Part shown: positions 853-59,120 of the stretch, in pieces
Position numbering within the stretch: the first letter of the stretch is position 1
Layout of the letters: every line of letters begins with the position of its first letter
From: Rhina ancylostomus
Taxonomy: Eukaryota
Assembly (NCBI GenBank): GCA_030265395.1
Contig: JARFYF010000053.1
Location: 36,656,118-36,720,117, forward strand
Reading direction: 5' to 3'
DNA length: 64,000 nt
The notes under the pieces: model-generated
The model's input: the letters and a program-made list of their open reading frames with translations, nothing else
Told to the model about the DNA's origin: nothing
Database searches by the model: none
Translations under genes and position numbers: made by a program

Positions 853-879
853 CTTTTTCGCACTGACGTAGTTTATCTT
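853..879 (-). CDS. 27-nt micro-exon (E)DKLRQCEK
   Basis: tataattattttcag|AAGATAAACTACGTCAGTGCGAAAAAG|gtaaga; paralogous to 43113 and 58029. Confidence 0.85.
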
Positions 880-6800: not shown

Positions 6801-9800
6801 CAATTACCTTCATCTTAGCAGTAGATGAGGCCGAGTTCAGATATGTCGGTATGGGAATTGGGAGGAGAATTAAAATAGCTGGTAACCCGGAGATCCAAAA
6901 GTGAGCAGTGGACAGAGCAAAGGTACTCAGACAAGCGATCCCGTATTCTGCTTCTGGTATCACCGATGAGAAGAGGCCACAATTTGAGCACCAGATGCAA
7001 TAAATGACGACGCGGGATTTGCATGTGAAAAACTGCCTCACCTGGAAGGTCTGTTAAGGATCATGGATGGTGGTGATTTAGCAGGTGCAGAGACGGGTGC
7101 TACACATTTTACAGTTACAGGGCAGAGTGTCTGAGGTCGTATGATCGAATACACTTCAACAAACCTATTTTGTAAAAACTAACACAATCCAAGTATTTTC
7201 ATTTTAAATTGACAACTGATGTTTTCCATTCCTGAACACATTTTAGAAGACGCTTACTGGTATCAGAAAACGAAAACCAAAGGTACAAAAAGTGGAAATT
7301 AGAAATGACGTCCAAATTGCTTCAAACCCATAAAATTCGTACAATTTCTACGAAGAGAGAACCAGCTCGCCAGGTAAACAACCTTTCATCACACAATTGG
7401 AAACAGTACAAGTACTTCGGCACTATCAGCAAATATTTCCTGACTGCTAAATTCTACTTAGAGCTTCTGTAATTTTGATCTCTACTTCTCTTAAAACCTG
7501 ATTTATAGAGTATCCATGACCAACGACTTATATAATTTGAAGAATGATAAAACCACCAACAGTCCCTGTTTTGAGAAGTGTGTCCTAGCCATTATCTACC
7601 TTAACGTCTACGCCTGATTCCTTCCGCTCATTTGAGGAGACAGTTGCGTCTAAAATCATTTTGGATCGTGCTGGTATACTTTGCATCTACACATTAGAAA
7701 TTTCTTCATTTCCTCGTCATTCCAACTTTTACGACGGTTACTTCTTGGTTCTGAGAATCGGAAAAGATAACATCTTTAACTTCACAGTTGGCTCTGCTGT
7801 AGCATTATCATTTGTATTCCGTAGGGAAATTACTATTATCCGATGAAAGTTAACTTGCCGCCTTTGAAATTCCATTTTGACTTTCCCCTTAATGATCGCT
7901 TTCTTCTTTATATTTCGGTACGTTAATTACTGCTATATAAGCAATTTGGTATGTTTGGTTCAACTCAGTCAGTCCTAGNNNNNNNNNNNNNNNNNNNNNN
8001 NNNNNNNNNNNNNNNNNNNNNNNNNNNNNNNNNNNNNNNNNNNNNNNNNNNNNNNNNNNNNNNNNNNNNNNNNNNNNNNNNNNNNNNNNNNNNNNNNNNN
8101 NNNNNNNNNNNNNNNNNNNNNNNNNNNNNNNNNNNNNNNNNNNNNNNNNNNNNNNNNNNNNNNNNNNNNNNNNNNNNNNNNNNNNNNNNNNNNNNNNNNN
8201 NNNNNNNNNNNNNNNNNNNNNNNTTTCCTACCATCGAAGTATCCTGGGATACTTTTATGAACTCCACTTTAGTTATTATAACTGCATCATAACCCCGCAT
8301 AGTAACTTGTCTTCGCAGCCAGCAACCTTATTCACCGCACACTTTGCATTTGCAAACACGCATTTTCAAAATGTTGTTTGCATCTGATGCATATAATATG
8401 TGCATCTCTATTGTCCTACTTCCTTCGTTTTTCATCTATGAGCAGTAATCGCCTTTTCTTTCAAATTATGTTGGTGTCCCAGTATCTGCTTCTGCTATTC
8501 ATAATAATATCAATGATTTGGCTGAAGAGATAGGAGGCTGCATGTCAGATTTTGTCGGTTATACTGAAGTAGATTGGATAGCTGAGTGTGAGAAAATTTG
8601 AAGACAACAGCTTAAATGGGGAGAAGATACATGGTGCATGGGGTACTCAGTCGATGGTTTTGAACCTATCCATCTCAGTGGACAATGAGACCTGAAAGTT
8701 TTTGTGCACGATTCACTGTAAACAATGTAGATGTAATAAATAATGTATCTGGGTAGTTGTTCTTGACGGCAAGATGAGTTCGGGAGAAATCGCTGATTTC
8801 CATAACATACACNNNNNNNNNNNNNNNNNNNNNNNNNNNNNNNNNNNNNNNNNNNNNNNNNNNNNNNNNNNNNNNNNNNNNNNNNNNNNNNNNNNNNNNN
8901 NNNNNNNNNNNNATACACAATCTTGGTGACACTGCATATGGACACGAGGCAACGTTTCAGAAGACTGATTGCTGGGGTAACGGGATAACATGACCTGATT
9001 GTTATTGTGTTCCTCAGAATTGGAAGAATTATACATGTTCTAATTCAAACTTAAAACATTCTGTAAACTCCAGACAGCCTGTATGAAGAGCGGATGTTTC
9101 TCCCAGCTCGGGTTATCTGCAACGAGGACGATGTAACTGGACAAGCGATTTGGAGTGACCGTGCAGTGCCTGGTAACAGAGAAGATAACGGTTTTCATAC
9201 AACTTCACATCTTGATCACATTTCTTGATGCAAAATGAATCATGCGTAAGGGCAGAGATTGTATACTACTTATGTTGCCTGCATTTTGTTATCGTGTCTA
9301 CTACATAATCATTGAGCAAGTTTGGCCGGTTGAGTTCTCCCAGCAGTTTAATTTTTGTTCTGGATTCCATTATCTGCGGATCGAATTACTGCACATAGTG
9401 GTGCGATTCTAATCAAATTCACAACATTGTGGAAACGTTCCGTGTAAACTCGGAGAAGTCAATATACTTCGTCACTTGCCCACATAAAATGACTTCTGGA
9501 TGGAAAATATTAAAACCGAATACTATGCAGGTATGTGACCACCAAATTCTCGGCTAGTTGAAACCTAAGACCATGACAGTTACCGGATCTGTTTCCTTTT
9601 ATTCAAAACCATTCAATTCTCTTTTCGTAATCGCCCTTCATTTGTAACGTGAAAAAAAAAACATGGAAATGATTACCTTCCATTTTTTGGTTGGCTCTCA
9701 ACATCTGTATTTCTGAAATACATATTTAAATTAATTTCTGTTCATTTACCTCTGGAGATAATTAATGCAATTTCCATTCGTTTTCTTTCATTTAAAACAA

Positions 9801-12800
9801 CGTTCCGTGCTAAATTATTCTTATCTCCTTGCAGTTCGATAAGCCATACAGTGTAGACACTTCCACAGCCAAACTTCCAGATGATTGTGAGGGCCCTCTC
9901 AGAAGCGACAACGGCCTGTGTTTGTCCATCACGTTATCTCCAGAGGAAAGGGGAATATCGAATTATTTTGTAGCGGATATATAAACATGTTCTTACTGAA
10001 ATTGGCTGAAACTCAGTTACAGATCCAAACAGACATGGATCCTTTGCAAAGTTGAAGAAAACAGTGCCCTTAAGAGAAGTTCAGCAAGTATTTTGCTCTT
10101 CTATTTTGAATATGTATTTCTTTTCTGATCAGAATGATGATCCCGCTATTTAGAATGTATTAAGGTTATAATCAGAACTGTTGCTCTGAACTTCGGTGAA
10201 TTATTTGGTGTGGAATGAAGATATTGTTATGTTACAAATGGCCACATGAATTATTGCCAATTGTAATTTTCACCATGTGGTCAATAAGACCAAGAATCAA
10301 CGAAATGGTAATTAAAAATATTTGTTACCATCTCTTTGAGAATGACCATAAAAATAATGGACACAGTAATAATTGGCCATTCATTTTCCTGGTGCCTATG
10401 GTGCGCAAGTAAACGCTGTATACAGCTTGGTAGTCACTGTAATAATAAATATCTCATTACAGCTATGATTGTATAACTAACTGCTATGAAACAAATGACC
10501 CGGTTATTAAACTACTTCTGTAAGTATGGCAGCAGGGCGATAATATTCGAATGGGGAACAGTAAACAAAGCAGTGGTTCATCCAATATAATCACGAGAAG
10601 ATAAAATGCTCACTCTATCATTGAATTGGATATACAACATTTCCGACAACGCAAGACTCTATCATTGGTCCGGGAGAAATTTTTTTCTAAATTTAGAATT
10701 CATGCAGATCGTTGGCTCCTGTCACACTTGGTACTTCGTAAATTATAAGCCACCATGAGGTGGAAATGTCACTAATTGCCGAATCAGATTCACACAAAAA
10801 AACTGTATCAAATAGTATTGTGTCGATTTTTAGAAAAGCATGCATTAAGGACACTAGTGATGATTTAAACAGGGAAATGTTGGAAAATATAACACCTCGT
10901 GAAAAAAAAACTGTTTAAGCAAGGGTAAAGGTGCAGTACTATATATAGAGGAACATAAGTGTAATATTGTTGTTAACAGTTAAATAAATAGAAATATAAT
11001 CAATCAAGCACTTCGCTCTCCATGTTAACCAATTACTCCAAACATACATTTATATTGACGGGTCGATGAGAGAGCATATATGTTGATTATTGCTGCCTTG
11101 GGCTAGTTATGTCCGCGTTGATGCCTGTACATGAATACAGAAGATAATGTATACAATTCTATTACATATTCCACTTGGGGACCAGAGTCCAGATTCCGAC
11201 ATGCCATCTTGCATTCTCCAGGTGGAGAACAGATGACTGTTCCAGTCGAGGCGAGTTTTCTCTTCAAGTGACTGTTGAATAGAATACTATCACCTGGGAA
11301 ATAGGGTGTTCCATCATTCAATTTCCCCCGGTATAATAAAATATGTTAGGATTAGATGTTTACCTTTATCCTTTTCAATCAATGACCTCGCTGAAAATAG
11401 CCAGACAACAAAAGGAAATAAAAATAGTGTAATTGGCAATGTATTTTGTGTCATCGTCCTTATTCAGATCATGGCTCAGCCCAGAAATTAATTTCACTGT
11501 CATTATCCCACGGCAAAATAGAAAGGAAGTGAATGAGATATTATTAACTATTGGTTATTTTAAACTGTACAAATAAGGATACCTCGGCAATATGAGTAAC
11601 TGTACTGCATTATGCCTTTGTGTCTGCACCAGTGTTTGACAAGATCATGGCTCACCATCCCCCTCTTCACTGTTCCTTCGAAAATTTCTTAATCCCTTTG
11701 ATTTAAAAAAAACTCCAGCTAACTGCATGTTAAGTGAGTTGGCGTCTGCAGCCTTACAGACTTTCAGATATCCATTATTCCTTTGTGAGGAATTTTCTCA
11801 ACCTCTGCATTTTAAATGGCACGCCGCGTAAACTGAAGCAGTGCAACCCAGTTATGATCCTTCAACTAATGTGAACATTCTCGCAGTTCTGGTCTGCAGA
11901 ATTAGAAATTTTAGAGATTTCCCTGAAATTTCTTATTCTTCTAAACTCCTGTGAACATAGGACTTGCCAATCCAATATTTCTTATGCATCCAACCAGACA
12001 TCCCAGAAACCAGACCAGTAAACATTTGTTACACTTGGTCCATAGCTGGAATACACTTCCACATGCAAAGAGGCTAAATATGCAGACAAAACTCCAAGGC
12101 GGATCTGAGCAAGGTCCCATGCAACTGCAGAAAGGTAACGTTGGTCTTTTACTCAAAGTTCCAATCAATGCATGACAACACATCAAGTATATTCCCAACT
12201 GCTTACTGCACTTGAGTGTGTGTTTTCAGTGACTTGTGATCAAGGACATCCAGATTACTTTGCACCTTCCTTTTCCCCAATCCACCATCACTCATTTTAT
12301 AACTTGCTCTGTACTTTTTGAAAAAAACCCACTAAATTCCTATTTATTCCGCTTAAGCCTTATCTGTCATGTAGTTTCCTACCAGCCCAAATTTGTGAAA
12401 TCACATTGGAGCCCATTTGTATCCTCTTCACAAGGAAAAGAAATTTAATTGGCAAGTAGTCAAGGCCATGACTTCCTAAAGTCTATTTTCTGCCATGCTA
12501 AGATAAGCGAGACTTCAGCTACACTGCCCCAGCTCCCCCAGTGTGGTATCGCGTGCGATCTTCAAGACTAAGTTTATTTCCCTCATTATCATTAATATCC
12601 ATTGTGATCAGCTGTAGTCAGAACACCGATCTATCCAGTACCCACTATATATTGCCTGCTATCCCGAACAACGCACGCTTATTCTCACAAAAAAATGAAA
12701 AATACGCTTGAAAAAAATCAGCAGCATACGCTGCAAATAATCTCCAAGATATGTCGTAGAATCGAGAAATAATAAAGAAGGCACCGAAGAAAATCACTGA

Positions 12801-15800
12801 AGAGCTTTTAAAGAAATAGGGCAAAGGAACAATGGAGCTAAAAGTCCATGGAAACGGATAATCAGCATCCGGTAGTGCAAAAACTGCAAATAATCCGTGA
12901 TTTGGGCTTGATATTCCAACATTCTTTCAACCTGGGAAAATTACTGTAGATTGGACATTGGAAAATGCAATCCAACGGATAAAAAAATAAGGGGAGGCGG
13001 TAAGCAGCTAATTGCATATCAATAATTCAAACACCCCTAGCAGGATGATTCCAGAATATATTGTAAAAGATGTAATATAAAATACTTGGAAATCATCAAG
13101 ATACTTTCACTCATCCAACACGTGTTTATGAAAGTTAAATTATGACTAAATTCTACTGGAGAATTATTCTGAAAATGTAATTACTTGCATATATTCAGTG
13201 TGGTGTGTATGGACTTCCGGAAGACCTTTAACAAGGTTCCATCAAGAGATGAGTATGCAAAACTAAAGCATACGGGGTTGTGGGAAATAAATGCCTGGAC
13301 CGGGCTTTCTTTGGAGATGATAGAACTCTGAAACAGATTACTCATGAAGTGGGCGAACATGAACGTCGATATTTCAATTTCAGTCTTTACGTAAAGTGCA
13401 TCGGAATCATTTTAACTATCCTTTAGCCAAGTGAGTTGTCTTAACGATATTTAAGATGATTTCGACTCTTATGGACTATAGATTTAATGGAATAACTGCA
13501 CCAATATGGTTGGAAATAAATTCGTCTTTTTAACGAAATGTTTCTTCTTATTGGAAACTCCAGTTTACCTGAAGATCAGAAAATGGACTGATATTTGAAG
13601 CACAATATATCTTGTGAATTGTGAATTCATGCATTTTTCTGCATACCTGTGTCTTGAAGAAGTTTGTCAAGATCTTAATGAAAAATGTACAAATTGNNNN
13701 NNNNNNNNNNNNNCAGAAACATAAATTAAATGATAGCCTATTAACATGTGCAGAAATAAATTCGATTGTTCCTGTGCCACACCGTTCGCTCGATTTGTCT
13801 GGCTTCTTCACTTGGCACCCTATCCAGCCGTGGATCAGGCTTGACCTGTATGTAAAGCACTTATGTCCGAGGGAATAGTCTTGGAGAGTTGAATTTAATT
13901 CATTTGGAAAGTAATGTTCTTGTTAATGGTGTCCCCATCTTTCCGCTCTCCTCCCTGCAGCAGTGAGGCAATTGGACCGTGCATTTTTGAAGATTTCAAA
14001 ATAAAATTTTAATTCCCAATATTTTTTTCTTTTTTGTCACATATTCCAGGGGGGTAAGAGAGGATCAAAACTCTCGGTTATATCAATTATGTAATGGGTG
14101 TGATGGGTCTCAGAATAATACACTTTAATGGGAAAGCCAACACGATATATAACACCGCAATCACAGGGATGAATCTGTATTGACTTTGTTTTTGCAACTG
14201 TGATTCTCATGAGGTATGGTTAGTTACGTCTGTTCTCTATTTTTGGAATAACTTTGCTTATATTACTTAAAGCGATTTGAAGAGTGTTTAAATGTTAAAC
14301 TAATAAAAGCCTTGCACAGTGAAAAGTTGCCAAAGGCAAGCGGGATGTTCGGGCGACATGGACGCTCTACTTCCCGAAGCTAAATTGAATCTTCGAACAC
14401 GTAGCCCTCACCATTCCCTGTATCGGCCTATCATATCAGGAAAAATATACAGCTCTTGAGATGCAACCAAAGGAAACAAATTCGAGTGAACCTATCAAAT
14501 ATTATTTTAATTTTGGACGACTGTCTAAACAAAAACTATTACACAACCTGATTGTCATTTCGGAAATTATTTGCGTACTTTATGAATATTTTATGAAAAC
14601 AGCAATTAATTCAAAGAACGATATTTAAAATGTATTCTCCACTGAGATTTCCACAGTGCATTGCATCATCCTCCATGGCAAAACCTTAAATCCACAAATG
14701 GGGTAAATAGAAAAGACGAACAACAGTGGATTATAGAATTCAGGTCTAAATACATGAAATGATGAAACTTCCAATTTTCGTTGCAACTCCATTTATTACT
14801 CTGATATGCAACCAACCAGATGAAGTTGGACATCCAAATCCGTAGGCATCAATGCCCGAAGAGATGGACTAAGTTGTGGGAATGTGACATACTTTTCGAA
14901 AATGACACAATCAGGTTAATTGATTGATAACGAAAAAGACAAATCATATCGTCATAATTTTAGAATATTTAATCTATGGGATATCCAAAACTTTGTGGAA
15001 GGAAAGACAAATCTCGTTGAAATACAAACGGGGTCCGAAGCTTGCAGAATAGCATTTGACTCTAATTCAAAGTAGGTACTTACGTCAATGGTAAATGAAA
15101 TAGAAAGTCCGAATGGTGATGATTACAACGTTGAAAAATCATGGGAAATTAGTTTTGAGTTTATTTATTGTTCCCATCGATTGAAAGTTTCTGGTAACTT
15201 CGAGGTTTTAGAGCACTGATGTGATAACGCATGCATTTATTTAGAACTATTGCATGAATATTGATAACAAATATAGAAATTGAAATTAAAGAAAATAATT
15301 CGGAGGAAAGGTGAAATGAACGTTATTATTTTAAAGCGGAGTTCCGAATCGAGTGAGTGACATTAGGTTACATTCAGAAATCGGCCACTGTGAAATTAAA
15401 TTGACCGTCATTGAATGGATTCGTTGAAATTTGGAGAGGTTGTCATGATTCTGAGTTCTGGCCATCAATTTGGCTCCATTAATGCCTTGCTGTTCAGCAC
15501 ATGGATTCCATGCTGGACTGATTAGTTAACAATACACACCTGAGCCCCATCAGGTGCCTAGCATAAGAACCTGTGTTTCCCTGGCACTAGTTGCCATAGT
15601 ATTGCTCTACCTTTAGGTATACTTTGGTTCCAGTTGCTTAGAGTGGTGTACTCGAGAGCAGTCCTGTGTTCTCTGTTCCTTTGTGAAGATCCAGTTTGTC
15701 TTGGGTTTCCTCTTCTGATCTCCGAGGCAAGATTCCTTCCAGTTACTGCCTGTGTTTGTCCTCAGGAAGTATCCTGACTCCGGTCTTGTATCAGTGTGCC

Positions 15801-18800: not shown

Positions 18801-21800
18801 TACAACACATTTATATCTTCCAGCTCAGCTCTCCGCTGTGTTCTTTAATACTTTGTGATCCTGTGATCGTTGGCTTGAACAAATATAAGGATGGGTGCTA
18901 CACCGAAAAATACTCATATGTTCTGTCTTCCAAAACTACACAGATTATCTGGAGAGATTCCAACAGAATCTGCTTCTCCCGACACAATGTTTTACACTGT
19001 TTAAACACAAATATAACAGTAAATGATTAACTACAGTTTCAATGGCTATAGTCACCTGTTTAACATTAACATTTTGAATATAGTCAGGTAAATTGGCAGA
19101 ATACATAATTACAATGGGACCATATCCCAACCAGCAGAANNNNNNNNNNNNNNNNNNNNNNNNNNNNNNNNNNNNNNNNNNNNNNNNNNNNNNNNNNNNN
19201 NNNNNNNNNNNNNNNNNNNNNNNNNNNNNNNNNNNNNNNCAGTTACTGCCTGTGTTTGTCCTGAGGAAGTATCCTGACTCCAGTCTTGTATCAGTGTGCC
19301 TCATTTGGGTTCTCTGGATCAACATTGTGAGAGAGGTCGGTAAAAATAATGCAGATGCAGCGTGTTAATTGGATAGCTGTAGGGAAATACAGATAGACTT
19401 TTCTTTTGGTAAAAAAAATCATTATTTACTTTTTCTACATGCTTTTTTCCTAATGTACAAACGAACCATGAATAATTGGAATGGTGCATTTACCTTTGAT
19501 GGGACACATGGCCTTCTGTTACTGCTTTCAGGTTAAATTGGGATAGGTGTTGTTGAAATGTATCTCAAAGTGTTCCGTTTCAGTATTGACTGGGACATTC
19601 CTGGAAATATATAAACTTCAGAAATGTCCTTGTTATTGCATCCGAAATTACAAGGTACGCATTTATCGGTAGTACCAAGCTTTCTTCGCTTGTACTCGCA
19701 CGCTGGAATTCTACAGCCTTTACTTGCAGATTACTTGGCTGTGAAAATTCTGTTGGTACTTTGCTGAGTGGAAAATCTTCAGTCCTTTGCGATGAGAATA
19801 ATATTCTCACAGATAGATGAGGATTATATATTTGTGCTCAGGAAAATGTTCGGCTCAGTTAAAATATGTGTTATCAGCTTTAACATTTTATTTTGGTAAT
19901 CTGCTCAGAGATCTTTTAAGGAACCTTTGTTGTGGTTGAATGTTTGTGACTGCCAACGCATTTACTCACTTTCTGAACACTTTGAGGTTCAAAAGCAGGA
20001 TTAAGACATTGAATGTAAGTGAAGGAAGAATTTTCGCAACCAGTTGTTATATGTTGCCGTAAACTGCTCCTTGGGCGAGATTTTCTGCCCATCTTCAACT
20101 TCATCCATCCCTCACATGACCGCATTAAAAAGTGAAATGTTTTTCCGCGACACTATCCTTCCTCATCAGCGACTGGTCTGGCATTTCTCGAAATTTGACA
20201 CTGACAGAGCAGCAAATTCTATTTAGATTTGTCGATAAGGGGAGCGGACTAGTAGTCGACATAATAATATTGCACTGTCCATAAAACTGGACTCCAGCAC
20301 GAACGTGATCTATCCGAAGATGAATGGCGGGTTGAGCTGAAATGTAAAACCCATAGTTCCTTCAATTAACCGAAGTAGGTTCGGAGTTGTGAGGAGGCAA
20401 CGGTCACTGTTTTCTCTGTAATCACACCCCAGCCCACTCAATGAAATCAGAGGCCACGATGGCATTTTTGTAGCTCAATTGTCCAAAGGCGTATCAGATG
20501 TTGTTGAACGCATCTTATAAAGAGATATTTTGAAATATTTCACACAAACACCAGTAAATCAACACATATATTAAAACCCTTATTTCATGATAAAACAAAA
20601 CGAATATTAAATATAATTTGAAACGCCTTAAAACAAACTAGCCAGTCAATCGGTGTTATAATAGAATATATAAAACAATTTTGCATGCCTACATTTATAG
20701 TTTTTACTCATTAATACTCATGACAACCACACCCGGTGTAATTTCAGGAGACCTGTAGCAAATTTAACCAGTCTCTGAGCTCAACACAGAAGCTTAAGTT
20801 TCTTCACTTAATCAACTGTCGAGAACAAAGCAGGACGTCAGATGAGCCAGTTCCTTCTTGATCTAATCGATTCAATGCGGATCTACAGATATCAATCACG
20901 AGCTGACCAGTGAACATGACATAGCCAGTGGTTCACCACAGAGTCGCCAGTCACAGGTGGTCATGTTTTCTACTACTTTACACGTGTTGCATCAATATGT
21001 TATTCTTCTAGTGCCTAACAACACTACCCCACCCCAGACGTGCACAAACACACAAACGGATAATTTTATAGGTTCCATTTAAATCACCTGCATTAAAATA
21101 AGTGAAGAATCGTTCTGCAAAAGAAGTAAAAGTGAATATTCGCCAGAAAATTGAGACCAAGTCTGAGATTTTACAGTGAAGCAAATTATCTGTTGGGATA
21201 TTTCTCTTTTTGTACAACCAAAACTAAACAAACTGGAACATTTTAGCTGGTTGTCCTGTCAAGTAAAATGTTTGCGAAGTGATTTCAATTCAGCGTGTTT
21301 ATATATTTATTGTATATTTATGAGGAAAGTATTAATTTACTGTTCATGGTGCTTCATTAACTCCAATGAAGCAAATAATTGTAGTCACATCATAATTCTC
21401 AAATACAAATGTGAATCCTGCGAACTATTTATACCATTGAACCAAGCAGGATATCAATGTGAATGTCTTACAAATTTAAATTTAATCTGCTTACCGCCTA
21501 ACATTGAGAGCCAACGGAATACAGAAAAAAAAATCCATATAATTCTGGTTTCAACAGGCTAAATTGTATGGATTAGCTTGTATATAACCTCCATTGCTGT
21601 TTATGATTTCAAACAATATTGTAGAGTGTTTGCATCAGGCTAATTAAGTGAGGATTATGGTGAATTCATGGAGTTATATATCATAACTGCACAGTTTTTT
21701 GTTCAACCTGTTAAGGAGCAGGTTGCTGTTTGATGATTGTCCCTTTAAGACATATTACAGTAGAGTAGTGTGTGTGTGGGGTCATCACGACCGGAAGAAG

Positions 21801-42800: not shown

Positions 42801-45800
42801 ATTGGCCAAGATTGGCGAATGCTTCGGTCGCTGAAGCAATATAGCTGTTTTTATGGAAGGCGCTTTCATCTGCCGGCAGCGGGCCAGTTTGCATGCTATT
42901 TGGTCCAATGTAACACGCGATGACAAATTACAATGTTATGAATAAGAAAATATTTTTCACAACCCACCCATTACACTGTCACATACATAATTTTAATACA
43001 ATTACATTATTCCAGCCCGTAAACAAAATTATTTTAAGATGCACTTGATGAAGTATTTTGTAAGCTACAAGCGCCGTCTGACAGTCTCTCCCATGATAAT
43101 GAACGCATTTACCTTTTGCTTGCTTCCTCAGCTTTTCCTCTAAAATGGTAATTGCAATATGATATCAGCAATATTTCAAATGAAATGCTATTTCTTTGAG
43201 TTTTCTGTTCGATAGGGACATAATCAACTGAACTAGAAAACAATTTTTGTGTACCTACTGATTACCAAAGTATTCGATATATGCTTTTTTTTCAGATTTG
43301 TCGCCACCAGAACTTTAAAATGCCATGAATGGTCAATGTCGTGCATATAGCCCGATGATGCTGACTGTTCCGGATAAGAGCAATGATCTATTTTTCACAA
43401 AAGTTCCTTTCCCGCTTAAACTGACCATATCCTTTATTATTCCACTTCGATGATTTTACATGCAATTAAATCACGGAACCCACTGTCCCCGTGAGTTCGA
43501 AGAATTTGTCGCCTAATCTCCTCTCCCGTCATCGCTGCAGGATTTTGTATACTTTCATTTGGAAAAAGCATCTCGGCTTGGATAAAACCGACATTTTCGA
43601 AACAAACATAACATCTCACTTTTGTTCAATGTTCTTACTATTTTGATCGGTTTCAAGCAAGTCTACCAGTAATTGTTTGTGTAATATTTATATCTATGAA
43701 TCATTCAAATTACTTTTTGACAGTTTACCTACATCAGGAGCGTCAAAACGTAGAGAAAGAAATAAAATANNNNNNNNNNNNNNNNNNNNGTCACATCCAA
43801 TTCGGCTTGTGTCAATGATGTTTGGACAACGCCTACTCTGCAAATATTCGTAGATATCAGTGAAGTTTTGCTGGTTCACAGCTGCTGAGGTCTATATTTT
43901 TAGGGTCAGGTAGATATGAGCAAGGCCACGGGGAGAGGCCTCCAGTATCGGCAACGATCGAAGGTTATCACAATCTGAAACAAAAATACTGCTGATAATG
44001 GAAATCCGATATCAGCAAAACAATACTGGCAGATTGTGCAGCACCTATAAAGACAGTAGCGTAGTGTCATGGAGTCGTAATTTGTACGGCATAGAAACAA
44101 ACCATTTGCCACACTATCAAAAATTGACCTACCTCTCTGATTTCAAACTGAACTAATTATAATAAGGATGTGAGATTTGGGTTTCCATGGATCGTTTCTC
44201 GATAAATCAGAAGTGCCTCCGATAATCCCGAATCTCTATTTGAAACTGTGGACACATGTTAGAGCACTATTAAGTGGCAGAGATGGAAACAATACGAATC
44301 CGAGTCGTTGTAATATCCGGGAAAAGGAATGTAATTGGTCATGAGTTTATAATCTGGAACTGGCTAACTAATTGGACTGCTAAGCCTCAAGGAATGGATG
44401 TTGTACTTTGGTGAAAAACTCTCTGAAGAAATGAATGAAAACACGGACAAGTTAATGAGGCGATGGTCATGTGATGCTTCCGAATTTATAAAATAAATTA
44501 ACTTATTTTAAATCATAAACAGATTTCTAACCTGTTGTTTTCAGTTTCCCCTTCAGCTTTTCAATTTCTACAAAAAAGAACGTCGCGTTTTAGTTTCTTG
44601 AAAGCAATCGTTGTTCTTTTGCGAGGCACAAGTTCCCCTCCACGGATATTCGCATTTAATGAAGAATCACAACACTATAAATCCATGGTATATACTAACA
44701 CGCTCATGGCATCTGAGGCTGTTTACAGGACAACTATGAAAAGAAAGGAAATGAAGCCATTAACAGTATTTTCTGGTTTCTTTAGGGAAGTAAGTACTGA
44801 GTGGCACCCAGTCTGACGTTATTTCGCCATTTATATGAAATTTCCTCTCTTCCAAAGAGAATTCTCTGCAGCATGCAGTGAAATAATACACTTAGACATT
44901 AGGAATAACACGTCGTAATGAGTAATATATCTTACAGTTGGTTACATTCAGAATCAAGAACTCATAAACTGAATGGTCTTCAAGTAAATAATCCATAAGA
45001 GTAATGTGACATTAAAACCAGACGGATAAGGTTAATGTCCACTTGTGGGTCGAATGGAGGCATATATGAATTAAGAAAAAGGGGATTCTATGGAAACCAA
45101 AACGAGTCAGGTCCCTACGGTGGAACAAATGTGTTCTTATTACGTTTACTTCTTGCAAGAGAGTGAAAAGAATGATATGATTAATGAATCACTGAGCTTG
45201 CTATGGCGGTATTTTGATGAAAGGCTTTCAGTTTAAGATAACTCATTCAGCACACCGTCATAGTAATGACTAAAGCATTGTATGGTTGAGTATTGCAAGG
45301 GAGTTCTTGGGATTGAGGTGAGGGTGGAACAAGCACCGAGGAGGATATACGTTAACTTATGGGGTTTTGAAACGTAAGCATTGTGTTAACTGAACTTGGT
45401 TCACTGAAATTTGGAGAAATATATAAAAGTGTGCTTCCAGTCTACGTGAAATTCAACTCTATGATTCTGCAGGTCGACTATTCGTAATTGGAATCGATGA
45501 TTCTGATATATAATCTATATTTCCACATTAGGTGTTGTTTCAAATATTGGGTTCATTTCTATCCGCTATGTTCTCTGTCTCTGAAGTGAACTCAAGGCTC
45601 TGAGCGTAGTATTTATTCAATGAAGGCTGTTGGAACAGTTTGAATGGGAGAAAAATAGCTTTGGTTGCATGTACTCGCGTGATATCCCTGAAACTGCCAA
45701 CCAACTGATTACATTTTCATTTGTATTTTAACATAGATCAAAATGTTTTGCGTTTATGAACATTGTCATAAATTACCTAGATCTTTTTCAAAGACGAGCT

Positions 45801-48800
45801 GATCTGCTAGTGGGAAGATGATAAAATTGTGATGAAGTACTCCCTCGTGTGAAATACATGCTAAATATTAATATAGGGCTGACCCTTAAAGTAATAACTA
45901 AGCATTGAGATTCCTTCTGTTACACTGAGCCAAAAAATGTTTAAGAAATCAAAATATTCTGATTACTTTGTCATTCAAGCAACACAAAATTTTGCCTGAG
46001 TGATCTATTTTTATTATTAAAACAAAATGACGCTCGTTTCAAGAGGCAAAACATCAAATGAGATCACCATGTTATACACTCTTCTCAGTAATTTGGCATC
46101 AGTTGCGGAACATTTGGATGATAAAACCCGACGTATATTCTATCATGAATTCAGTGTTGATTCCCGTCGTCCCACTTTTATTTACTCACCATCTCTTTTG
46201 TTTTCTGTATCCAATTCTGAGGAAAATGAAATACATACTTCTGTTGGCAATATCGTAAATACACGTTTCAATTTGGTTTCAGCAGTACATTGCTCTGGTA
46301 CCAATGGTCTCTGACTTTCTGTATCTCGACAGTATTTGATTGGTCGTAATTTTAATCGTTTATCGCCTCGCAAGTCCGTTGGAAGATTGCAAGTTCGGAA
46401 AATAAAATAAAATAACGGCTATTTCTGTGAGATTCTAAAAATAATACAATGATGGAAGTACTAGGCTTACCTAGCAACTTCTGTGAAAAGTGTAACAGAT
46501 TCAATATTTCAGGAGGAATAAGCTTCTTTAAACTGACAGAGGAGTTTTTTTAAGTTGTAGGGATCGCAGGAAGCCTCGATAGGGCATAGCAAATACGTTT
46601 GATAAGGTGAAGTCAGGATTGCTATCGATGGAAGATGTAATTGACGTCAGACGAATGGTCTGCGGCCCTGAAAATTAAATCTGTTCCTCCACTGAAAGGC
46701 TAGCTGCCCAAGCTGCCGAATGTGCTAGCAGTCTGTTTTTCAGTCATTGTTAAATTGCCACTATTCTTCAGCTAGGTTTTCCCACGGGATTTACTTCTGA
46801 TTGTCATCTACTATTCAAGGTAAACTGCTGTAACATTAGGGAACTCTCATTCTCTGTCTGTCTCAGAACTGACCAGTCCAGCTGTGGAATTGGGTTATTT
46901 TCTTTCTCTGACTATGTCTCTGTCTGTCTCTGTCTCTTTCTGTCTGTCTGTATCTCTCTCCTCTCCCTCCCTCTCTCCCTCCCTCTCTCTCTCACTCTCT
47001 CACTCACTCTCTCGCATTCTCTATGAGCAAAGCCTGTCCTCTTGGACAGACGTGTCCTTCAGCACTGTATTTCGTTACGTTTTGGATCCCTGATATGTGT
47101 TCTGGCTACATATTTGCACTCATGTCATATCTTTCGTGTCGGTTTCCTCATGTTCCACTCCCCATTTGGTCCCATTACGCCATTTGAGTAGATGATTTCA
47201 TTTTCAACTTATCTCCACGAATATCCAGACCACACCTTTCACCCTTTGACCGATAGGCTTTTCCCATTCTCTCTGCAATATAAATCAACATATTTCGTCG
47301 CTATTTCAGATCTGGCAAAGGATCTTCGGCCAGACACTTCAAATTTGTTCCTGCTTCTGCAGACGATACGCTACATGTTTAGAGTTTTTGTAATTTCCCA
47401 TGCAAATATAACTCTCACTGTCTGTTTATCTTTCAACAAATGTCCTGGGGAGAGCAGTGTTAATGGTTTTTGTTTACAATCTATGACCACGGACAATAAA
47501 GTTCTTGCACATACACTTCTCAATTCTGCTGACTAGGGAACGATAAGCATTTTTTTTGTTTGTTTTCCCATTGGGCTTTGTTTCATGTGCTGACGGTTTC
47601 AGCTATGTTACTGTTAGATATATGTGGTTCTTGACAACGATCAGAAATTTAGAGACTCGCAGAGTAATATAACACAGAAACATACACTTCGGCCACTATG
47701 CATGACCCCGGAGAACCCATTAGTACTAACCCCATGTTTCATCACTTGGAAAATAGCCTNNNNNNNNNNNNNNNNNNNNNNNNNTCCTCAATATTGCGAG
47801 ATCTTTGCCACTAGCAAGCCATTAGTCAATGCGATCCAAATCAGATTCCAAACACACTCAGGGTGAATATAAAATATTCAGTAAAAGAAACTTCCGATAC
47901 CCTCTCCACCACCACCACCCAGCTTTTACCTTAAACCCATGGTCAAATAGACTTATGCACCTATTCCACCGTTTGAAATTTATCAGTATTTAACAAAACT
48001 ATGTCCCTTGTAAGTTCTTATACGGCAGTCCATTCACTGTGTTGCTTTTCTCTGCTCCAAGGAAAACAAGCACAGTCTTTTCAGTGTCTCGTCATAAAGG
48101 AAATATTCCCTCGTACGAAACACATTGATACATATACTGTACACACCATAATGTGCAAAATGTCCTCCGTATATGACGAGCAGATTTGTACATAGTAGCA
48201 CACAACGAGCCTAACTAATTTTGAACTTAATGGAACGATATCGTTCCCTGCTCTTGCAGCCTCTAATCTCATTTATCTACCAATGAGTTTTGAAAGGCCA
48301 GTAAGTCAATTTGTGATCCTAATTTTGATTCCAATCTCTACTCATAGAGTTTAATTTGATTAAACTTACAAAAAAAATATTCCTCCATTCCTGCAGTTAC
48401 GGACTCCTGCATTCATGTTGCAATGGCAGCTTCCCTTTTGAATTCATCCCTGACACGCCTGAAGATACAATACCATGGAATTTTGAATTGCCGGTTTTGA
48501 TGAAATTCTGTTTTTTTCTCTGTAGAGAAACAATATCGCATTCACATGTTCTGAACAATCCCTTCCGTTCGGATGCTTGGAATTCAGACTCATGGCATTA
48601 AACTAGATGAAGTTTAGCCTCACATTTGCTACCTTATGCATCTTCGCGCACATATGCTCTGCACAATGAACTAACTTAATATATATTTTTTCTTCTGGCG
48701 TTAACTGCATCATCAATTGAAACTTACATTGGCCCTGTGTCATGTAGCATTGCGCATTAAACTTAGACCCAAAATAAAGGGATAAGCAAGCATCTCCCAA

Positions 48801-51800
48801 AGTATATTGGACCTGTTCCCGCACAGATGAAACGCGTACAAGTGAAGCAGTTCCCAGCTTCCGCCAAGTTCTTCAGAACAACCCGGACGTACGAGTCATT
48901 CTCTTGGAACATCTCATAGCCAAGTACTCAGCTGACCTATCTCCCAATTCCTATGTTAACTAGAATGCGTGGAGACCCCTCTTCTCGGTGTGTTGCTAAT
49001 TCACTCGATTCATGGAACAGGACGTTATCTTTCTTTTTCCGTTAATGTCAATACGATCGTGATAAAGGGCCTCCAGTTGTTCACCCTTTCCCTTTGGAAT
49101 GTATTGCAGCTACATCTTGACGTCTTAGGTCCTTGCATAATGGTGGGGGGGGAGACAACACACCACATCCTGATTGAGTTCCATGACCGCAAAGTGCCCA
49201 TGTCACCTGAAACTCTTGCCATTTAACTCGTAATTCCCTCTAGATTCTGTCTTTGGCTGGCATCATTGATTTTATTCGCGCGTCTTTCCTTTAGATGCAA
49301 CGTGGCCACCTCGAAAATCCGGCAGTCCACGTAAGTCCAGCCACACTTTAGTAATGTAGTAAATATTGTTACCAGGTGCTATTTTTCCTGTACATTGTTT
49401 AAATACATTTCTTGCATACCAAGCACACGTAATTGGTAAGGACCTACATTACATGAAATAATTGGTAATGCAATGAGATACCCAAATTTTGACCGTCTTT
49501 ATACTTCAAAGGAGCCAAATTCATTAACGAAAGAAGATCGTTTTCTAAAAAAAAGAGCATCGTCATATCCACAGTAATAATAATAATGACAATAACAATA
49601 ATACAGGTGTTTCCTTACGCAAAGCACTTATAGTTTCTTTCAAGATTTTTATTTCTGGAATGAAAATAAATCGATATTGTTCATCACTAGGCAGGTAAAA
49701 AATGTAGAGTTACACATGCAATACGAGATATTAAACGGCACAAAACATGTCTAAAAAGCGGCAGAAAATGCAGTGAACGGTTACACAATATATTCATCGA
49801 GATGGTATCAAAACAAGTAAAGGAAGAGTGAAGTTAAGAAATGAAGGGTGTGACAAAATTATTAATCAGATAAAAATAGATTGCTCTGCATTCGTAGTTG
49901 TTTGGAGGGAGTGTTTGGAGAGGACATGGGAAGACTTTTGTTTCCGAAAATGAAAGAGCTGCAAGTTAACTGCCCTGCCAGATCAAATGCATACTTCAGC
50001 CCGAATATTTCTTCTGCATATTTTAGTGGGCAAGTCGATAAGGATTTCAACATCAGACAAGGGCGTATATGTCCTCATTTGCACCTTGGTCAAGTACTTC
50101 AGTAATCTTCTGAAAGGAGAAACTGAATTTAATTGTCGCTTTACTGTTGTATACACCTGTCTACCTTCGTGTACTCTAAAATGATCTCATCAATTGAATA
50201 GTACACTGCCTTAAATGAAATTTAAAAATGTATTGTTATTTCGATAATATTTATGGTTAAAATTTGGTATTTTTAATCAATATAAATGCTAATTATTTCT
50301 GTCAGTTAAACATGTTTGACATAAGAATTGCAGTATCATTTTGTGAAGATGTGATTGTCTTTCATTTGCACTTGCTGAACAGCAAAACACATTCAGGAAA
50401 TGTTCCCTTCAGCAATGCGTGAACTACGGTTCACTGGCCACAAAGGATGTCCATTAGTGCAACCATTGCAATCACCATCTGCGGCTGGTCAACACTCAAG
50501 GGGGTCGTTGTTTTGCAACTGCGTACGATAAGCAGAACTGCGGAATCGGCCTTTGCTAGAGTACGACTAGACTAAGCCTCAACCGGCAAAGCAAGTTAAG
50601 GCATTTACATTCCAACAACAATTATGTTTTCCTTCTGAAGCATACTCATATAACTGATTTAAAATATATTGCAGTTGCGTAGCCTTAAAGGAAATTTATT
50701 ATGCATTATTAGCGGCAGTCGGTAGATAAAGAATTCATAGCTGCTCTCAATGTGGTACACCAGATTTTTCTTTCAAGTCTGATGCAACAATTCAACATCA
50801 ATCAATGATGTGAGGGGGATAAAAGAAGTAAAAAATCTGCTGGGAACAGAATTGTTACATCACATGATGCGTCCATAACATTTTTAAAAGATTTTACAAA
50901 ACGGCAAGAAGTTAAGGCGTCGGTTATGCTCTTGTTGGTTCAGTCTGTCGGCTGCAACTGTTGCTCCAAGGAGCGGGAGAACTCACGTGGCGTTATGTGC
51001 GTTTTAATCAGTGAGCNNNNNNNNNNNNNNNNNNNNNNNNNNNNNNNNNNNTTCCTGACTCCGCAGTGCGCATCAACATGAATGGCCATTTTTGTGCCAT
51101 GTTACCAGCGCCCATTTTCCTGTCGAAGAATAAGGTAGCACAGAGATCTTTGCATGTTACCCTCCCGTGAGTGCTTTTGCTAACTCGCCTCGCTCTAAAA
51201 TACTGCAATAATTCCTTTTCTGACGATCCATTCCACCGTCCTCATTCCCAAATATGCGTTCTGACAGCCTTGCGTGGTGTAGGTATATGTCCAAACCTTT
51301 GAACTCGGCTGAAGGGCCATTTCTTAGTTGTAATAGTACTTGTAATATTAAAAGTAACTACCACGAAAAATAGTGAAAAAAGACTGAAGAAAGGAATGAG
51401 AAACTAGCAAAAAAATAAATGAAACAGTGATGTCCCGTGGTGAGGAGAAGATTTCTTTTTTAACATCTGTTGTGGCAATTTTGTGAGAAATTCAATTCCG
51501 TTATCATTACATGTTGTTCCTGTCGATTCGAAATAAAAATAGTCATAGAAACTCTTAAGCTGTGCTGTTGAATTACGATACACGTTATAGATTGAATAAG
51601 TACCTTTATCTTTTGCAATAAGTGACCTGGCTGTAAATTAAAAAAAAGAAACATTAATTAAATACACTTGCTAATACAACGTGGCTGGTGGGTCGGCTTG
51701 AAAATCAGAATTGCTTACTGAGCTATCCGGATATGTCATCATTAGTTTTAATCAATTGAAGCCTCGTGTGGAAACAGGATTACATTATTTTAATAATCCA

Positions 51801-54800
51801 TAACAAGGGCATGGTATTATCAAAGTACTTTTATTTCGTAATGAAACTTATTTAGTATAAATCTTAATCAATACAATCGCGAAGAGGGGCAACGTTATTT
51901 TTAGAATTGGATTTTAATAATGCTTGAGAGCATTTGTAAAAACATTCAAAGAAGCTGCAGAACTATTCTTGTCTGAATTATTACATTTTGACTTGTTGCA
52001 TTTCAATGTGATAACAGTGAAATTATTTGAAAAAGTAAATAGGCATGACCGTTTAATTACAGAGTAGAGTCTTTTTACAGAGTGGATATGATAGCAAACT
52101 GGGAATCTTTACAATGACAATTAGAGAAAATTCGAACTGCCAAGATTAATTTACTATTCACATATATCCCTTCAGCTGTTTTTAAAAAAAATCTTCGCGG
52201 AGGATGGCTGTCGATTTAATAATTTACAAAAAAATGTCAAACAACAAAATATACACTGGAATTTCAATTGCTTCACTCAGCGAAATATTGGGAATTATGA
52301 TAAACTTTGTAAGTGAAATAGCAACTGATTAGGTTGCAACTTCGAAATATAACTGTGCCATCATTAGATGTTTAAAATCTGGGAGCAAAGAGTAAAGAGG
52401 GAAACAAGACAAAATAAATGACTATTTTAATTAACAGGAAAATACAGAGGCATCAAACGCCTCTGTGTGATACTTCTATTATTTTATATTAGTAAGGTAG
52501 TGGGTGCTTTTAGAGAGTAAGTATTAAAGAATGACGTTGAATCATGTGTCTCTTTCTAATGTTGCATGATATATTGCTATGAACAAATATATTACCGACG
52601 CCAACGAAAGGCACTCGTCAGAGAATATACTATTTGTTTGTGTTCTAGTGCTCAACGTGATTTCTACCTCATATGCCTGTTTTGTCAATGTTCCTCTTGG
52701 GATGTAAAAACACTGACGATTTCAAATATTTATCCATTTAACCGGGGTACAAGTTTTCCTCGGCATTTGTGGATTGCATTGTACACAGTGGATCAACCCT
52801 GAGAAAAACAATTAATTTGTCAGAATGCGAAACTTGGTTGGCACCGGCGGAGTAGAAAATAATGTTCCTAATTTAAAATGAATTAAACAACAGAAGAAAA
52901 GAATCTTATTGACCTGAAATATTGTACTTCCAGACTAGCCCTTATGTAAATATATCCAGTAAGTTTCACACACATATTTCGAGAAGCTCAGTCTTTACAC
53001 AACAAGACACACGGCAATCCACTTCTAAACAATCAAAAACACTGAAAGTTTTCAATCGTTTCTCGTTTCACAATGTATCGGCAGTGAAAGAACTAGGTTA
53101 CACCGTTGCGACGAAAGAACTGTTTTCAGAGAAGTAGGGACGCGCATACCATATAACAAGAGGTGTTACCGCCTTTGCTTACCTGTGTCCCGGAGTACTT
53201 TGTCGATCTCTTCAAATATAAATGGAAATTATTGACAAATCCCCTCAAAATGCAGAATAATTAATTCACAAAGTTTCTGTCAGTTATGGTTGCAACTGTT
53301 GAGTTTAACTTTAACTAAGGCCAGTTTCCAATTAGCATCTGCCAATCATTTGTTTTATGAAACCTTTATTTAGTTGAGCAGTTCTCAGCCCGTGTGCTAA
53401 TGTCTATTGCTATCAATCAACTGAAAAGAGGATCTACTTTATTTGTACAGGAATTTATTGAAGCCAGTTTGGTTTTCTGCAAGGAAGTAATTATTTTTGT
53501 TTGTTTAGGCATGCAAACGTACACTGCTCTCAATACATCACATTTACAAGGCAGGTTTTAAAAAAAGTTTTCACGTTGAACTAATGTCAAAAATGTATCT
53601 CTAATACATTTTCCAGTCCCGGCATGTCAACAAAGGGGGATTGAAATCCAGTTGATCAAAAATCTCGATATTCCCTCAAAATTACACTGTCAGGAATTGA
53701 GATCGTGAACAGTTGGAACGAAAACCCAACCTTTTCTTTAATGACCTTTCTGGCTGGTATCTCGCTGGTCTGGTCTGTTACTGATATTAGGCCTACAATA
53801 TATACTTTTAAGAACACCTTAAAGTGAACACTGAAACATTGGTAAAACATAACGTTACAATAATTGGCAACTAAGGTTCATTGAACTGGTTGACCACGTT
53901 GTAAGTGGAAAATGTGGATGGATATTAAATTATTGCAAACATTACTTTTGTCGAATAGCGATTGCAAAATGACAATACAATTGAAAGGAAATCTGAGTTT
54001 TCTCCAAACCTTGCAGCACTTTGAAAAATCCAAAAGCATAATTTATCCCTAAGAGCCATTATAAATTTGTAACCGAGGTTGCTATTTGTGGACAAGTGGA
54101 GAAGCAACAAAGCCCCGGAAATGGTAAGCCTTAATTGGGCCCTGTCATCTCTTCCTGAAATTATATCAGAAGTCTGGTATAGATGAGCAAACGTTCACTG
54201 CGGAACAGAACTAAATCAGAACAAAAGCATTTCGTGGGGTTAAGCATCTATGGTGAAAAAAATTATATACTAAAAGAGTTGCCGGGCAGAAAGAAGTTAG
54301 CCCTGTCACTTTTTTTTTGGTTTTCATATAGTCTGCCTGATGTAGGCAGTGGTTTTCCTTCAATCTATTAATGTTTGCTCAGGAACTCCGTACTGATTTT
54401 TAAAAAATCGTCCCAGATAATCACATAGATCGCGTGTTACCAGAAAAAGTCACGTGATCGCAGAGATGAAACAACAATGTTCCATCAGTCTCAATTATGG
54501 GAATGATTTATTGGCTTCACCTGGATCGTGTGTACTTTTTCTTTCTCCTGTGTTCCGATGAAAAATGAAATTAATTTTACAATATTTGCAGAAAATACAC
54601 CAAACATTAAATAACATATTGAATAGATTGGCTTAGGTATTAATGCTTTTAATCTCCATGAGTGGCCCATATGGATCTTTGAGCAAAACTGTCTCGTCTT
54701 TTGCCTAAATCACGGAGAGAAATCAACCTTTAACAGTGCTTGGCAATTGTTCCTTTAAAAGCTATTAACGTAGAACATCACAAAATGCTCGTGAAGCCCT

Positions 54801-59070: not shown

Positions 59071-59120
59071 GAAGCACCTTCTTGTCACTTTCCATTATTT
59101 CTATGCCAAAATATCGCGAG

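Follow-up and report, generated by a model that had tools for sequence, protein, structure and literature searches.

A 57-kb array of about 20 candidate phase-1 micro-exons in Rhina ancylostomus probably encodes part of a coiled-coil rod grown by exon duplication

Introduction

Internal exon duplication is in itself ordinary in genes for coiled-coil proteins, and mammalian butyrophilin genes carry 21- and 27-nt phase-1 exons ahead of the B30.2 exon. Butyrophilins are described as IgV-IgC-TM-heptads-B30.2 proteins, reported from cartilaginous fishes, in which the length of the heptad stalk is variable (PMC12841164); those of mammals are described as having few heptads only (PMC5938342, PMC4046983). 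In the chicken BG proteins, as the same two sources present them, a series of very small phase-1 exons, each with its first codon split, specifies a tail that is alpha-helical and forms a long coiled coil. These exons, mostly 21 nt long with a few of 18 or 24 nt, hold one heptad each, occur as 27-38 repeats and vary in number through duplication, while the true heptad spans exon junctions (PMC5938342, PMC4046983). The micro-exon genes (MEGs) of schistosomes are described as flatworm-restricted, with short, signal-peptide-bearing products and high dN/dS (PMC4350168).

Here we analyse a 64,000-nt stretch of the Rhina ancylostomus genome (contig JARFYF010000053.1; hereafter the window), in which a first-pass annotation had noticed a three-exon block occurring twice, about 40 kb apart, with a signature of purifying selection. 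Judged from the sequence, the two blocks are the best-preserved duplicate pair in a larger array. The window is probably the middle of one large intact gene. Its roughly 20 micro-exons, all in phase 1, would specify a portion of a long rod, a dimeric coiled coil grown by repeated old exon and block duplications; the rod would form a stalk between end domains, about as likely as not with a B30.2 end. Our literature search, which covered mostly the main texts of papers outside subscription, listed no paper on such a gene in cartilaginous fishes.

Results

A minus-strand array of symmetric micro-exons

About 20 symmetric candidate micro-exons, all in frame, run along the minus strand from 58055 to 853 and are spread over 57 kb (Table 1). 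Most are 27 nt (14/20) or 36 nt (4/20) long, with one of 30 nt and one of 21 nt, and G is the last base in 19/20. Introns measure 0.1-10 kb, and the spliced total of 573 nt makes up less than 1% of the 57 kb. At least five exon classes were seen 2-4 times each, in mixed order. The exon set was partly chosen by eye and the splice matrices are approximate; three plus-strand decoys scored above 8 with the same matrices, C1, X and F1 had poor leave-one-out scores, the acceptors of D1 and D2 are weak AAG sites, and the donor of F1 is weak. Inclusion of the 10-nt candidate would shift the frame and bring a stop at the second junction downstream. Four extra exon candidates (47272-47243, 41045-41016, 50778-50761 and 60495-60487) were dropped as equal to plus-strand decoys at best, as was a D-like 27-mer near 28222, which has no acceptor and is no better than the decoys.

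Table 1. Candidate micro-exons of the array, in order along the minus strand
Feature	Position	Strand	Remarks
A1 micro-exon, 27 nt, phase 1	58029..58055	-	splice-score pick; 20/27 nt same as A4, mutual best match in window
B1 micro-exon, 27 nt	57891..57917	-	splice-score pick; paralogue of B2, P = 0.0013; 111-nt intron to A1
C1 micro-exon candidate, uncertain, 27 nt	54521..54547	-	splice-score pick; leave-one-out score -0.3; without partner
D1 micro-exon (DK.L.DT type), 27 nt, block 1	53183..53209	-	splice-score pick; paralogue of D2
E1 micro-exon (RSLI.KDK type), 27 nt, block 1	51604..51630	-	paralogue of E3
F1 micro-exon (EI..L type), 36 nt, block 1	49619..49654	-	weak donor; best partner F3, P = 0.016
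10-nt AG..GT candidate, outside count of 20	46471..46480	-	strong splice sites
B2 micro-exon, 27 nt	46190..46216	-	splice-score pick; paralogue of B1
E2 micro-exon, 27 nt	45777..45803	-	30 nt via tandem acceptor; related to E3, P = 0.009
F2 micro-exon, 36 nt	44532..44567	-	paralogue of F3, 7/12 residues
A2 micro-exon, 27 nt	43113..43139	-	related to A4 and A1, P ~0.005
F3 micro-exon, 36 nt	32786..32821	-	paralogue of F2; best partner of F1
A3 micro-exon, 27 nt	31606..31632	-	splice-score pick; class label weak, P = 0.20
B3 micro-exon, 27 nt	31274..31300	-	splice-score pick; class label weak, P = 0.055
C2 micro-exon candidate, 30 nt	23022..23051	-	without clear partner
X micro-exon candidate, 27 nt	21088..21114	-	strongest splice sites; atypical residues; without partner
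D2 micro-exon, 27 nt, block 2	13647..13673	-	paralogue of D1
E3 micro-exon, 27 nt, block 2	11364..11390	-	paralogue of E1
F4 micro-exon, 36 nt, block 2	9677..9712	-	best partner F2, P = 0.029
B4 micro-exon, 21 nt	4664..4684	-	aligned to B2 with in-frame 6-nt gap; peptide likeness alone not significant
A4 micro-exon, 27 nt	853..879	-	splice-score pick; A1 paralogue

When candidates were taken by splice score alone, 14/83 on the minus strand were 27 nt long, as compared with 1/65 on the plus strand (Fisher p = 0.002); in 30 shuffles the mean number of 27-nt candidates was 1.1 and the maximum 3, and any single length was reached by at most 5. Of the 14 27-nt exons, none has a stop in phase 1, whereas 5 and 7 have one in the other phases (chance 0.0026), and the corresponding numbers of exons with a stop among all 20 are 0 in phase 1, 10 in phase 0 and 9 in phase 2. 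Comparison of the upper with the lower half of the array scored 104, against a maximum of 91 in 2,000 within-exon shuffles, and significant paralogue pairs were found for D, E, A, B and F (F2 with F3). DNA depth was 4.5-8.1 in every exon-bearing bin of 43000-57100, as compared with 145 and 101,625 at true repeats. This estimate covers the upper exons and may miss 27-nt matches from elsewhere because of their shortness; it comes from a single data set that agrees with the window at every letter outside repeats, may be its source and is therefore not independent. None of the exons lies within the window's long repeat families.

The duplicated block is one repeat among several

All six exons of the two blocks are present on the minus strand in phase 1, flanked by AG...GT, at the coordinates given by the first-pass annotation, which are donor-side exon ends. 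As it had described, E1 and E3 (51630-51604 and 11390-11364) differ at 5/27 nt and share 8/9 residues with one change (E/A), and D1 and D2 (53209-53183 and 13673-13647) differ at 8/27 nt and share 5/9 residues, the changes being D/E, L/I, L/V and Q/R. These two pairs are clear paralogues; the 36-nt pair that completes the block is only weakly alike, F1 and F4 (49654-49619 and 9712-9677) differing at 19/36 nt and sharing 3/12 residues (P = 0.12 alone), with better partners in F3 and F2, respectively. Both EI..L exons of the blocks were found, but the array holds four of these, not two. In a self-comparison of the kind that had been proposed (sensitive blastn, 1-15000 against 42000-56000), the E and D pairs were the two best matches (E values of 8.7e-5 and 0.033).

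The absence of deeper intron similarity largely holds, because only 2/19 flank comparisons reached p < 0.05, these being downstream of the 36-nt pair (p = 0.008) and upstream of B2 and B4 (46216/4684; p = 0.035), whereas 17/19 were at random level. With introns unlike and the upper exons single-copy by depth, neither a recent neutral duplication nor a dispersed repeat family, the two outcomes that the first-pass annotation had named as refuting its reading, was encountered, and an old duplication in which only the exons were kept is supported. A single three-exon duplication is nevertheless too simple, since classes recur in mixed order and the two blocks form one repeat among several in the 20-exon array; a longer collinear chain, A-B-x-D-E-F-B-A, did not reach significance when exon order was permuted (P = 0.10).

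The purifying-selection signal is genuine in its sign but becomes modest when the picking bias is controlled for. Pooled pS and pN between exon copies were 0.64 and 0.25, and dN/dS came to 0.14 when the two good pairs were used and to 0.25 when the weak third was added, values that compare copies rather than orthologues and are biased low because the pairs were picked for looking alike. As a control, stop-free 27-mers were drawn at random from introns and matched for DNA identity; relative to these, pair D gave P = 0.043 and pair A1/A4 P = 0.23, while the BLOSUM score of pair E gave P = 0.147, with 0/34 controls reaching 8 identities. That the exons are translated, as the first-pass annotation had argued from this signature, is thus supported, although dN/dS contributes less to this than do the peak at 27 nt, the phase test and the heptad register.

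Predicted product and surroundings

Joined in order, the exons give 191 residues that are stop-free, amphipathic and 47% charged, with 2% Gly+Pro. Their helical moment has its maximum at 100-103 degrees, a value reached by 0/500 residue shuffles (against exon-order shuffles, P = 0.092). The heptad register is better in the genomic than in shuffled exon order by register-window means (P = 0.033, 0.020 and 0.022), whereas window maxima are not significant against shuffled order (P = 0.16-0.37). From B2 to A3 a single register runs across a 10.3-kb intron, with hydrophobic residues at 11/17 seam positions versus 7/43 others; the register is broken after F1 and after F4. A collagen-like product and the other reading phases were excluded by stops in phases 0 and 2 and by the 2% Gly+Pro. 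When F1 is read through, the frame closes with a short Leu-rich tail that coincides with a microsatellite, and the 48-residue open frame around F1, used as a protein query, returned 388 candidates, none at E <= 10.

Among minus-strand frames of 55 or more codons, 157/166 were scanned against Pfam without a match at cut-off, the nine left out being repeat-like stretches near 6.4-6.7, 15.8-18.6 and 24.9-26.0 kb. These and 48 plus-strand frames revealed no exon for an Ig, B-box, RING or B30.2 domain within the window, and no transmembrane exon was seen within it. An open AG..GT stretch of 341 nt (38646-38306) had no Pfam match, eight weak Pfam matches, all under cut-off, were treated as noise, and Rfam and tRNA searches of the window each returned 0. 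Two gaps of exactly 100 N, probably a nominal length, lie between the blocks at 28621 and 19140; the stretch 28721-57132 has no such gap, and exon repeats recur within it.

Discussion

We suggest that the rod arose as single exons, and also short runs of exons, were duplicated again and again long ago. Each exon has a length divisible by three and lies in phase 1, so the frame would survive the copying or skipping of any exon or block; and since a 27-nt and a 36-nt exon together encode 21 residues, or three heptads, such pairs would keep the hydrophobic seam in register. Selection may have preserved the seam residues as introns and third positions drifted. The rod could hold apart end domains that lie beyond the window and act as their dimerising stalk, its length tunable by duplication and perhaps also by exon skipping. 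By analogy with butyrophilin/TRIM-type proteins, its likeliest end would be a binding domain of the B30.2 (PRY-SPRY) kind, in itself about an even call. More tentatively, and with less expectation of being right, cartilaginous fishes may possess an undescribed giant immune-type gene class, a B30.2 sensor on a rod of scores of 27/36-nt micro-exons, to which the window would belong. The rod might then have grown as blocks that preserve the register were duplicated one within another, and its length might be set, like a molecular ruler, through the regulated skipping of 63-nt exon pairs and through a 10-nt poison exon.

The first-pass annotation had left one gene and two tandem paralogues side by side. 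A single gene with internal repeats is favoured, because the window is without a domain exon, but not proven. At least two tandem paralogous genes with short micro-exon rods, their boundary lying in a 10-kb exon-poor stretch or an assembly gap, or two unlinked contigs scaffolded together, are an unlikely yet not negligible alternative: mean likeness between exons peaks at 11.8 at an offset of 12 exons and is at most 4.1 at other offsets, the 100-N gaps separate the blocks, and butyrophilin/BG genes are described as forming tandem families (PMC4046983). Against this, the blocks have no domain exon and no convincing long exon between them, the heptad register is continuous over the 10.3-kb intron, A1 is nearer to A4 than is A4's collinear partner A2, and classes F, E, A and B are repeated inside one gap-poor stretch. 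Somewhat less probable still is one rod gene not of the butyrophilin/TRIM B30.2 kind, structural or membrane-anchored and with other end domains. The Ig, B-box, RING and B30.2 exons not seen in the window, the exon lengths unlike those of BG, and the Leu-rich tail would all suit such a gene, but that tail coincides with a microsatellite and found no protein match, and strings of phase-1 micro-exons encoding heptads are the tail design described for BG (PMC5938342).

A decaying relic, whose formerly coding exons are no longer spliced or translated, would account for the weak splice sites at F1, D1 and D2, the frame-shifting 10-nt candidate and the many retroelement pieces in the introns. We consider it improbable, as 0/20 exons have a phase-1 stop and every length is a multiple of three despite a pS of ~0.6 between copies, and the sole indel seen is in frame. 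Least credible of all are chance AG..GT words or 27-mers from a dispersed repeat family. By DNA identity alone the D pair (19/27) is at background, because a 27-mer can find chance matches of up to 18-20/27 within the window; the length and phase tests have nonetheless already largely refuted this reading, and pairing on the same strand in the same order, single-copy depth of the upper exons, flanks at random level in 17/19 tests and a position outside the long repeat families all argue against it.

Genes of this kind are likely to be missed or mis-annotated, because their coding pieces are too short for protein-similarity searches. If the single-gene reading is confirmed, the BG-type design of a rod made from micro-exons would be widened from 21-nt to 27/36-nt units, whose order the heptad register would constrain. 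The internal paralogues would also allow a direct test of micro-exon array expansion and of splicing-tuned rod length.

Among the known systems, the array resembles schistosome MEGs in that its coding sequence consists of tiny symmetric exons, but differs from them in its long rod and perhaps in dN/dS, which is ~0.2 between internal copies and biased low. With butyrophilins it would share a heptad stalk; unlike their few cytoplasmic heptads, it has ~191 rod residues in the window alone, with both ends outside, and the C-terminal B30.2 of butyrophilins was not seen in the window's frames, the array's 3' end lying beyond position 1. The likeness to the chicken BG tail lies in symmetric phase-1 exons that split the first codon (phase-1 stops in 0/20) and a heptad coiled coil that is predicted to run across exon junctions. 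In contrast to BG, only 1/20 exons is 21 nt long, 27 nt (14/20) and 36 nt (4/20) being the rule, and Ig-V and membrane exons were not seen in the window, outside which the gene starts. Because the units are of 27/36 nt and not of one 21-nt heptad, the heptad register here needs particular neighbour exons. The array thus follows the same working principle as the chicken BG tail, yet with exons of other lengths than 21 nt it does not belong to the BG genes.

A minus-strand array of candidate micro-exons

We scanned all AG..GT stretches of 9-60 nt using approximate splice matrices that are blind to translation. In this splice-score scan, 27-nt stretches accounted for 14 of 83 minus-strand and 1 of 65 plus-strand candidates (p = 0.002), and 30 local shuffles yielded a mean of 1.1 (maximum 3). 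All 14 were free of stops in phase 1, whereas stops interrupted 5 and 7 of them when read in the two other phases (a pattern with a chance probability of 0.0026). Together with four candidates of 36 nt, one of 30 nt and one of 21 nt they form a partly eye-chosen set of 20, totalling 573 nt across 57,203 nt. Leave-one-out splice scores were at least 9 for 15 exons and lower for C1, X, F1, E1 and E2 (letters denote exon classes, numbers their copies in array order); three plus-strand decoys scored >8 in the same scoring.

The peptide likeness of D1/D2, E1/E3, A1/A4 and F2/F3 was matched by none of 3000 random peptides (B1/B2, P = 0.0013; A2/A4, A1/A2 and E2/E3, P = 0.005-0.009); labels A3, B3, B4 and C are weak by this test, and B4 aligns to B2 with an in-frame 6-nt gap. 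Exon likeness was highest at a 12-exon offset; when exon order was permuted, the longer collinear chain did not stand out (P = 0.10). Although A4 and B3 belong to different classes, their acceptor regions match at 21 of 22 nt, a hint that the classes themselves descended from one exon.

The first-pass annotation had described a D-E-F block duplicated about 40 kb apart. All six exons were recovered in place, AG/GT-bounded. As claimed, pair E differs at 5/27 nt with one residue change, and pair D (8/27 nt) shows four residue changes, all conservative; in a self dot-plot pairs E and D were the two best matches (E-values 8.7e-5 and 0.033). Their similarity stops ~10-20 nt beyond the splice sites, and the introns are indeed largely dissimilar: 17 of 19 flank comparisons scored no better than random. 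The other two (p = 0.008 and 0.035) are not strong given 19 tests, and the former takes in T-rich simple sequence that may explain it. The 36-nt pair F1/F4 occupies the expected position with weak likeness (19/36 nt differ, 3/12 residues match, P = 0.12). The block is real but belongs to a larger object than reported: because exon classes recur along the array, it reads as the best-preserved repeat within a mosaic of duplications. The original interpretation is supported in part.

Coordinates of features in the window
Feature	Position (strand)	Remark
Array order	58055-853 (-)	A1 B1 C1 D1 E1 F1 B2 E2 F2 A2 F3 A3 B3 C2 X D2 E3 F4 B4 A4
D1 / D2	53209-53183 / 13673-13647 (-)	27 nt
E1 / E3	51630-51604 / 11390-11364 (-)	27 nt
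F1 / F4	49654-49619 / 9712-9677 (-)	36 nt
Acceptor regions A4 / B3	894-873 / 31315-31294 (-)	
F1 read-through	49654-49566 (-)	simple repeat at 49569-49605
10-nt AG..GT stretch	46480-46471 (-)	between F1 and B2
AG..GT stretch, 341 nt	38646-38306 (-)	stop-free
Gaps between blocks	28621, 19140	exactly 100 N
Further gaps inside array	57133, 8813, 2045	exactly 100 N
Extra base in sequencing run	49144	intronic
Integrase zinc-binding match	59271-59771	retroelement piece
Reverse transcriptase match, below cut-off	24809-25129	retroelement piece
Repeat family	15421-15845, 19240-19316, 40214-40642, 57233-57512, 59101-60190	82-96% identity
Decayed LINE-like pieces	24600-26000 (+), 15760-17550 (-), 30000-30800	longest introns; 25474-25609 resembles 30513-30648
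Short element, inverted pair	22304-22398 / 57036-57132	84% alike

Selection on the duplicated exons

Purifying selection had also been proposed, as evidence of translation. Nei-Gojobori counts on internal exon pairs (pS ~0.6) put dN/dS at 0.14 when D and E were pooled (binomial P = 0.012), at 0.25 over the block's three pairs (P = 0.031) and at 0.21 over five best pairs that share no exon (P = 0.0012). Because these pairs were chosen for looking alike, we set them against intronic 27-mers drawn at random, free of stops and matched for DNA identity, which gave P = 0.043 for pair D, 0.147 by score for pair E and 0.23 for A1/A4; the 8 identical residues of pair E were reached by 0/34 intronic 27-mers. 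The direction of the signature holds, its strength is modest against this control, and translation is better backed by the length, phase and register tests.

Predicted product

Joined in order, the exons would encode 191 residues free of stops, of which 47% are charged, 24% large and hydrophobic, and 2% Gly or Pro. The hydrophobic moment peaked at 100-103 degrees, exceeding 500/500 residue shuffles, and was not significant against exon-order shuffles (P = 0.092). A heptad-specific test favoured the genomic order by window means (P = 0.033, 0.020 and 0.022) and was not significant by window maxima. Exons B2 to A3 share a single heptad register spanning a 10.3-kb intron, with hydrophobic residues at 11/17 seam (hydrophobic heptad) positions versus 7/43 others. 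The first seven seam positions of the two blocks are identical in 6 cases, including two of the three residues common to F1/F4. The register is interrupted after F1 and after F4, where exons may have been missed or the rod may kink.

A 10-nt stretch with strong splice sites would, if spliced in, end the frame after 69 array residues; the matching intron has a weak counterpart near 5912, which lacks a donor. The stretch could be a poison exon, a decayed exon or chance. Reading through the weak F1 donor would add 13 residues, rich in Leu and derived from a simple repeat, before a stop; a protein search with the 48-residue open frame around F1 found no match. This read-through might yield a short protein anchored in the membrane, but is probably chance.

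One gene or two

A Pfam search of 157 of the 166 minus-strand frames of 55+ codons returned no family at cut-off, 48 plus-strand frames gave retroelement matches alone, and long AG..GT candidates within the window were background-like. A stop-free stretch of domain-exon size, with no Pfam match, lies inside the 10.3-kb intron. There could be two genes with their ends hidden in gaps, or the gaps could be scaffold joins, as gaps of exactly 100 N separate the blocks and occur elsewhere in the array. A single gene is nevertheless favoured, because we found neither a Pfam domain in the minus-strand frames searched nor a convincing long exon, the register is shared, and exon classes repeat inside 28721-57132.

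Copy number and repeats

The window is 38% G+C with 1,575 N across 17 runs. Its repeats appear similar to those of sharks and rays. Between 43000 and 57100 (the upper exons), bins that contain exons had a contig depth of 4.5-8.1 in one sequencing run, which may be the window's source and from which very short matches may escape; real repeats reached 145 and 101,625. This run carries one extra base relative to the window. Copies of a repeat family flank the integrase match, and the two are likely LTR retroelement remnants. Depth at the 57036 copy of a short element reached ~10^5-10^6, and the element is therefore a very high-copy family.

Proposed mechanism and comparison with known systems

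The exons are symmetric and phase-1, their classes recur and their introns have drifted. The frame would be preserved whichever exon is copied or skipped, and a 27+36-nt pair would add three heptads and thereby also maintain the seam. The rod, a predicted coiled coil, may serve as a dimerising spacer lengthened through nested duplication; by analogy with butyrophilins, there are about even odds that the protein ends in a C-terminal B30.2 domain.

In the literature covered by our search, no cartilaginous-fish gene of this type is described. Butyrophilins with variable heptad numbers are reported from these fishes in PMC12841164, whose main text lacks the word "exon". With schistosome MEGs, as described in PMC4350168, the array has only exon design in common. 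In PMC5938342 and PMC4046983, the tail of chicken BG (butyrophilin-family) proteins is encoded by many small phase-1 exons with a split first codon and heptads crossing junctions, and the array works likewise; however, it does not fit the definitions in these sources of BG (21-nt exons) and of butyrophilins (few heptads). The array is a real feature and a variation on a known micro-exon rod design.
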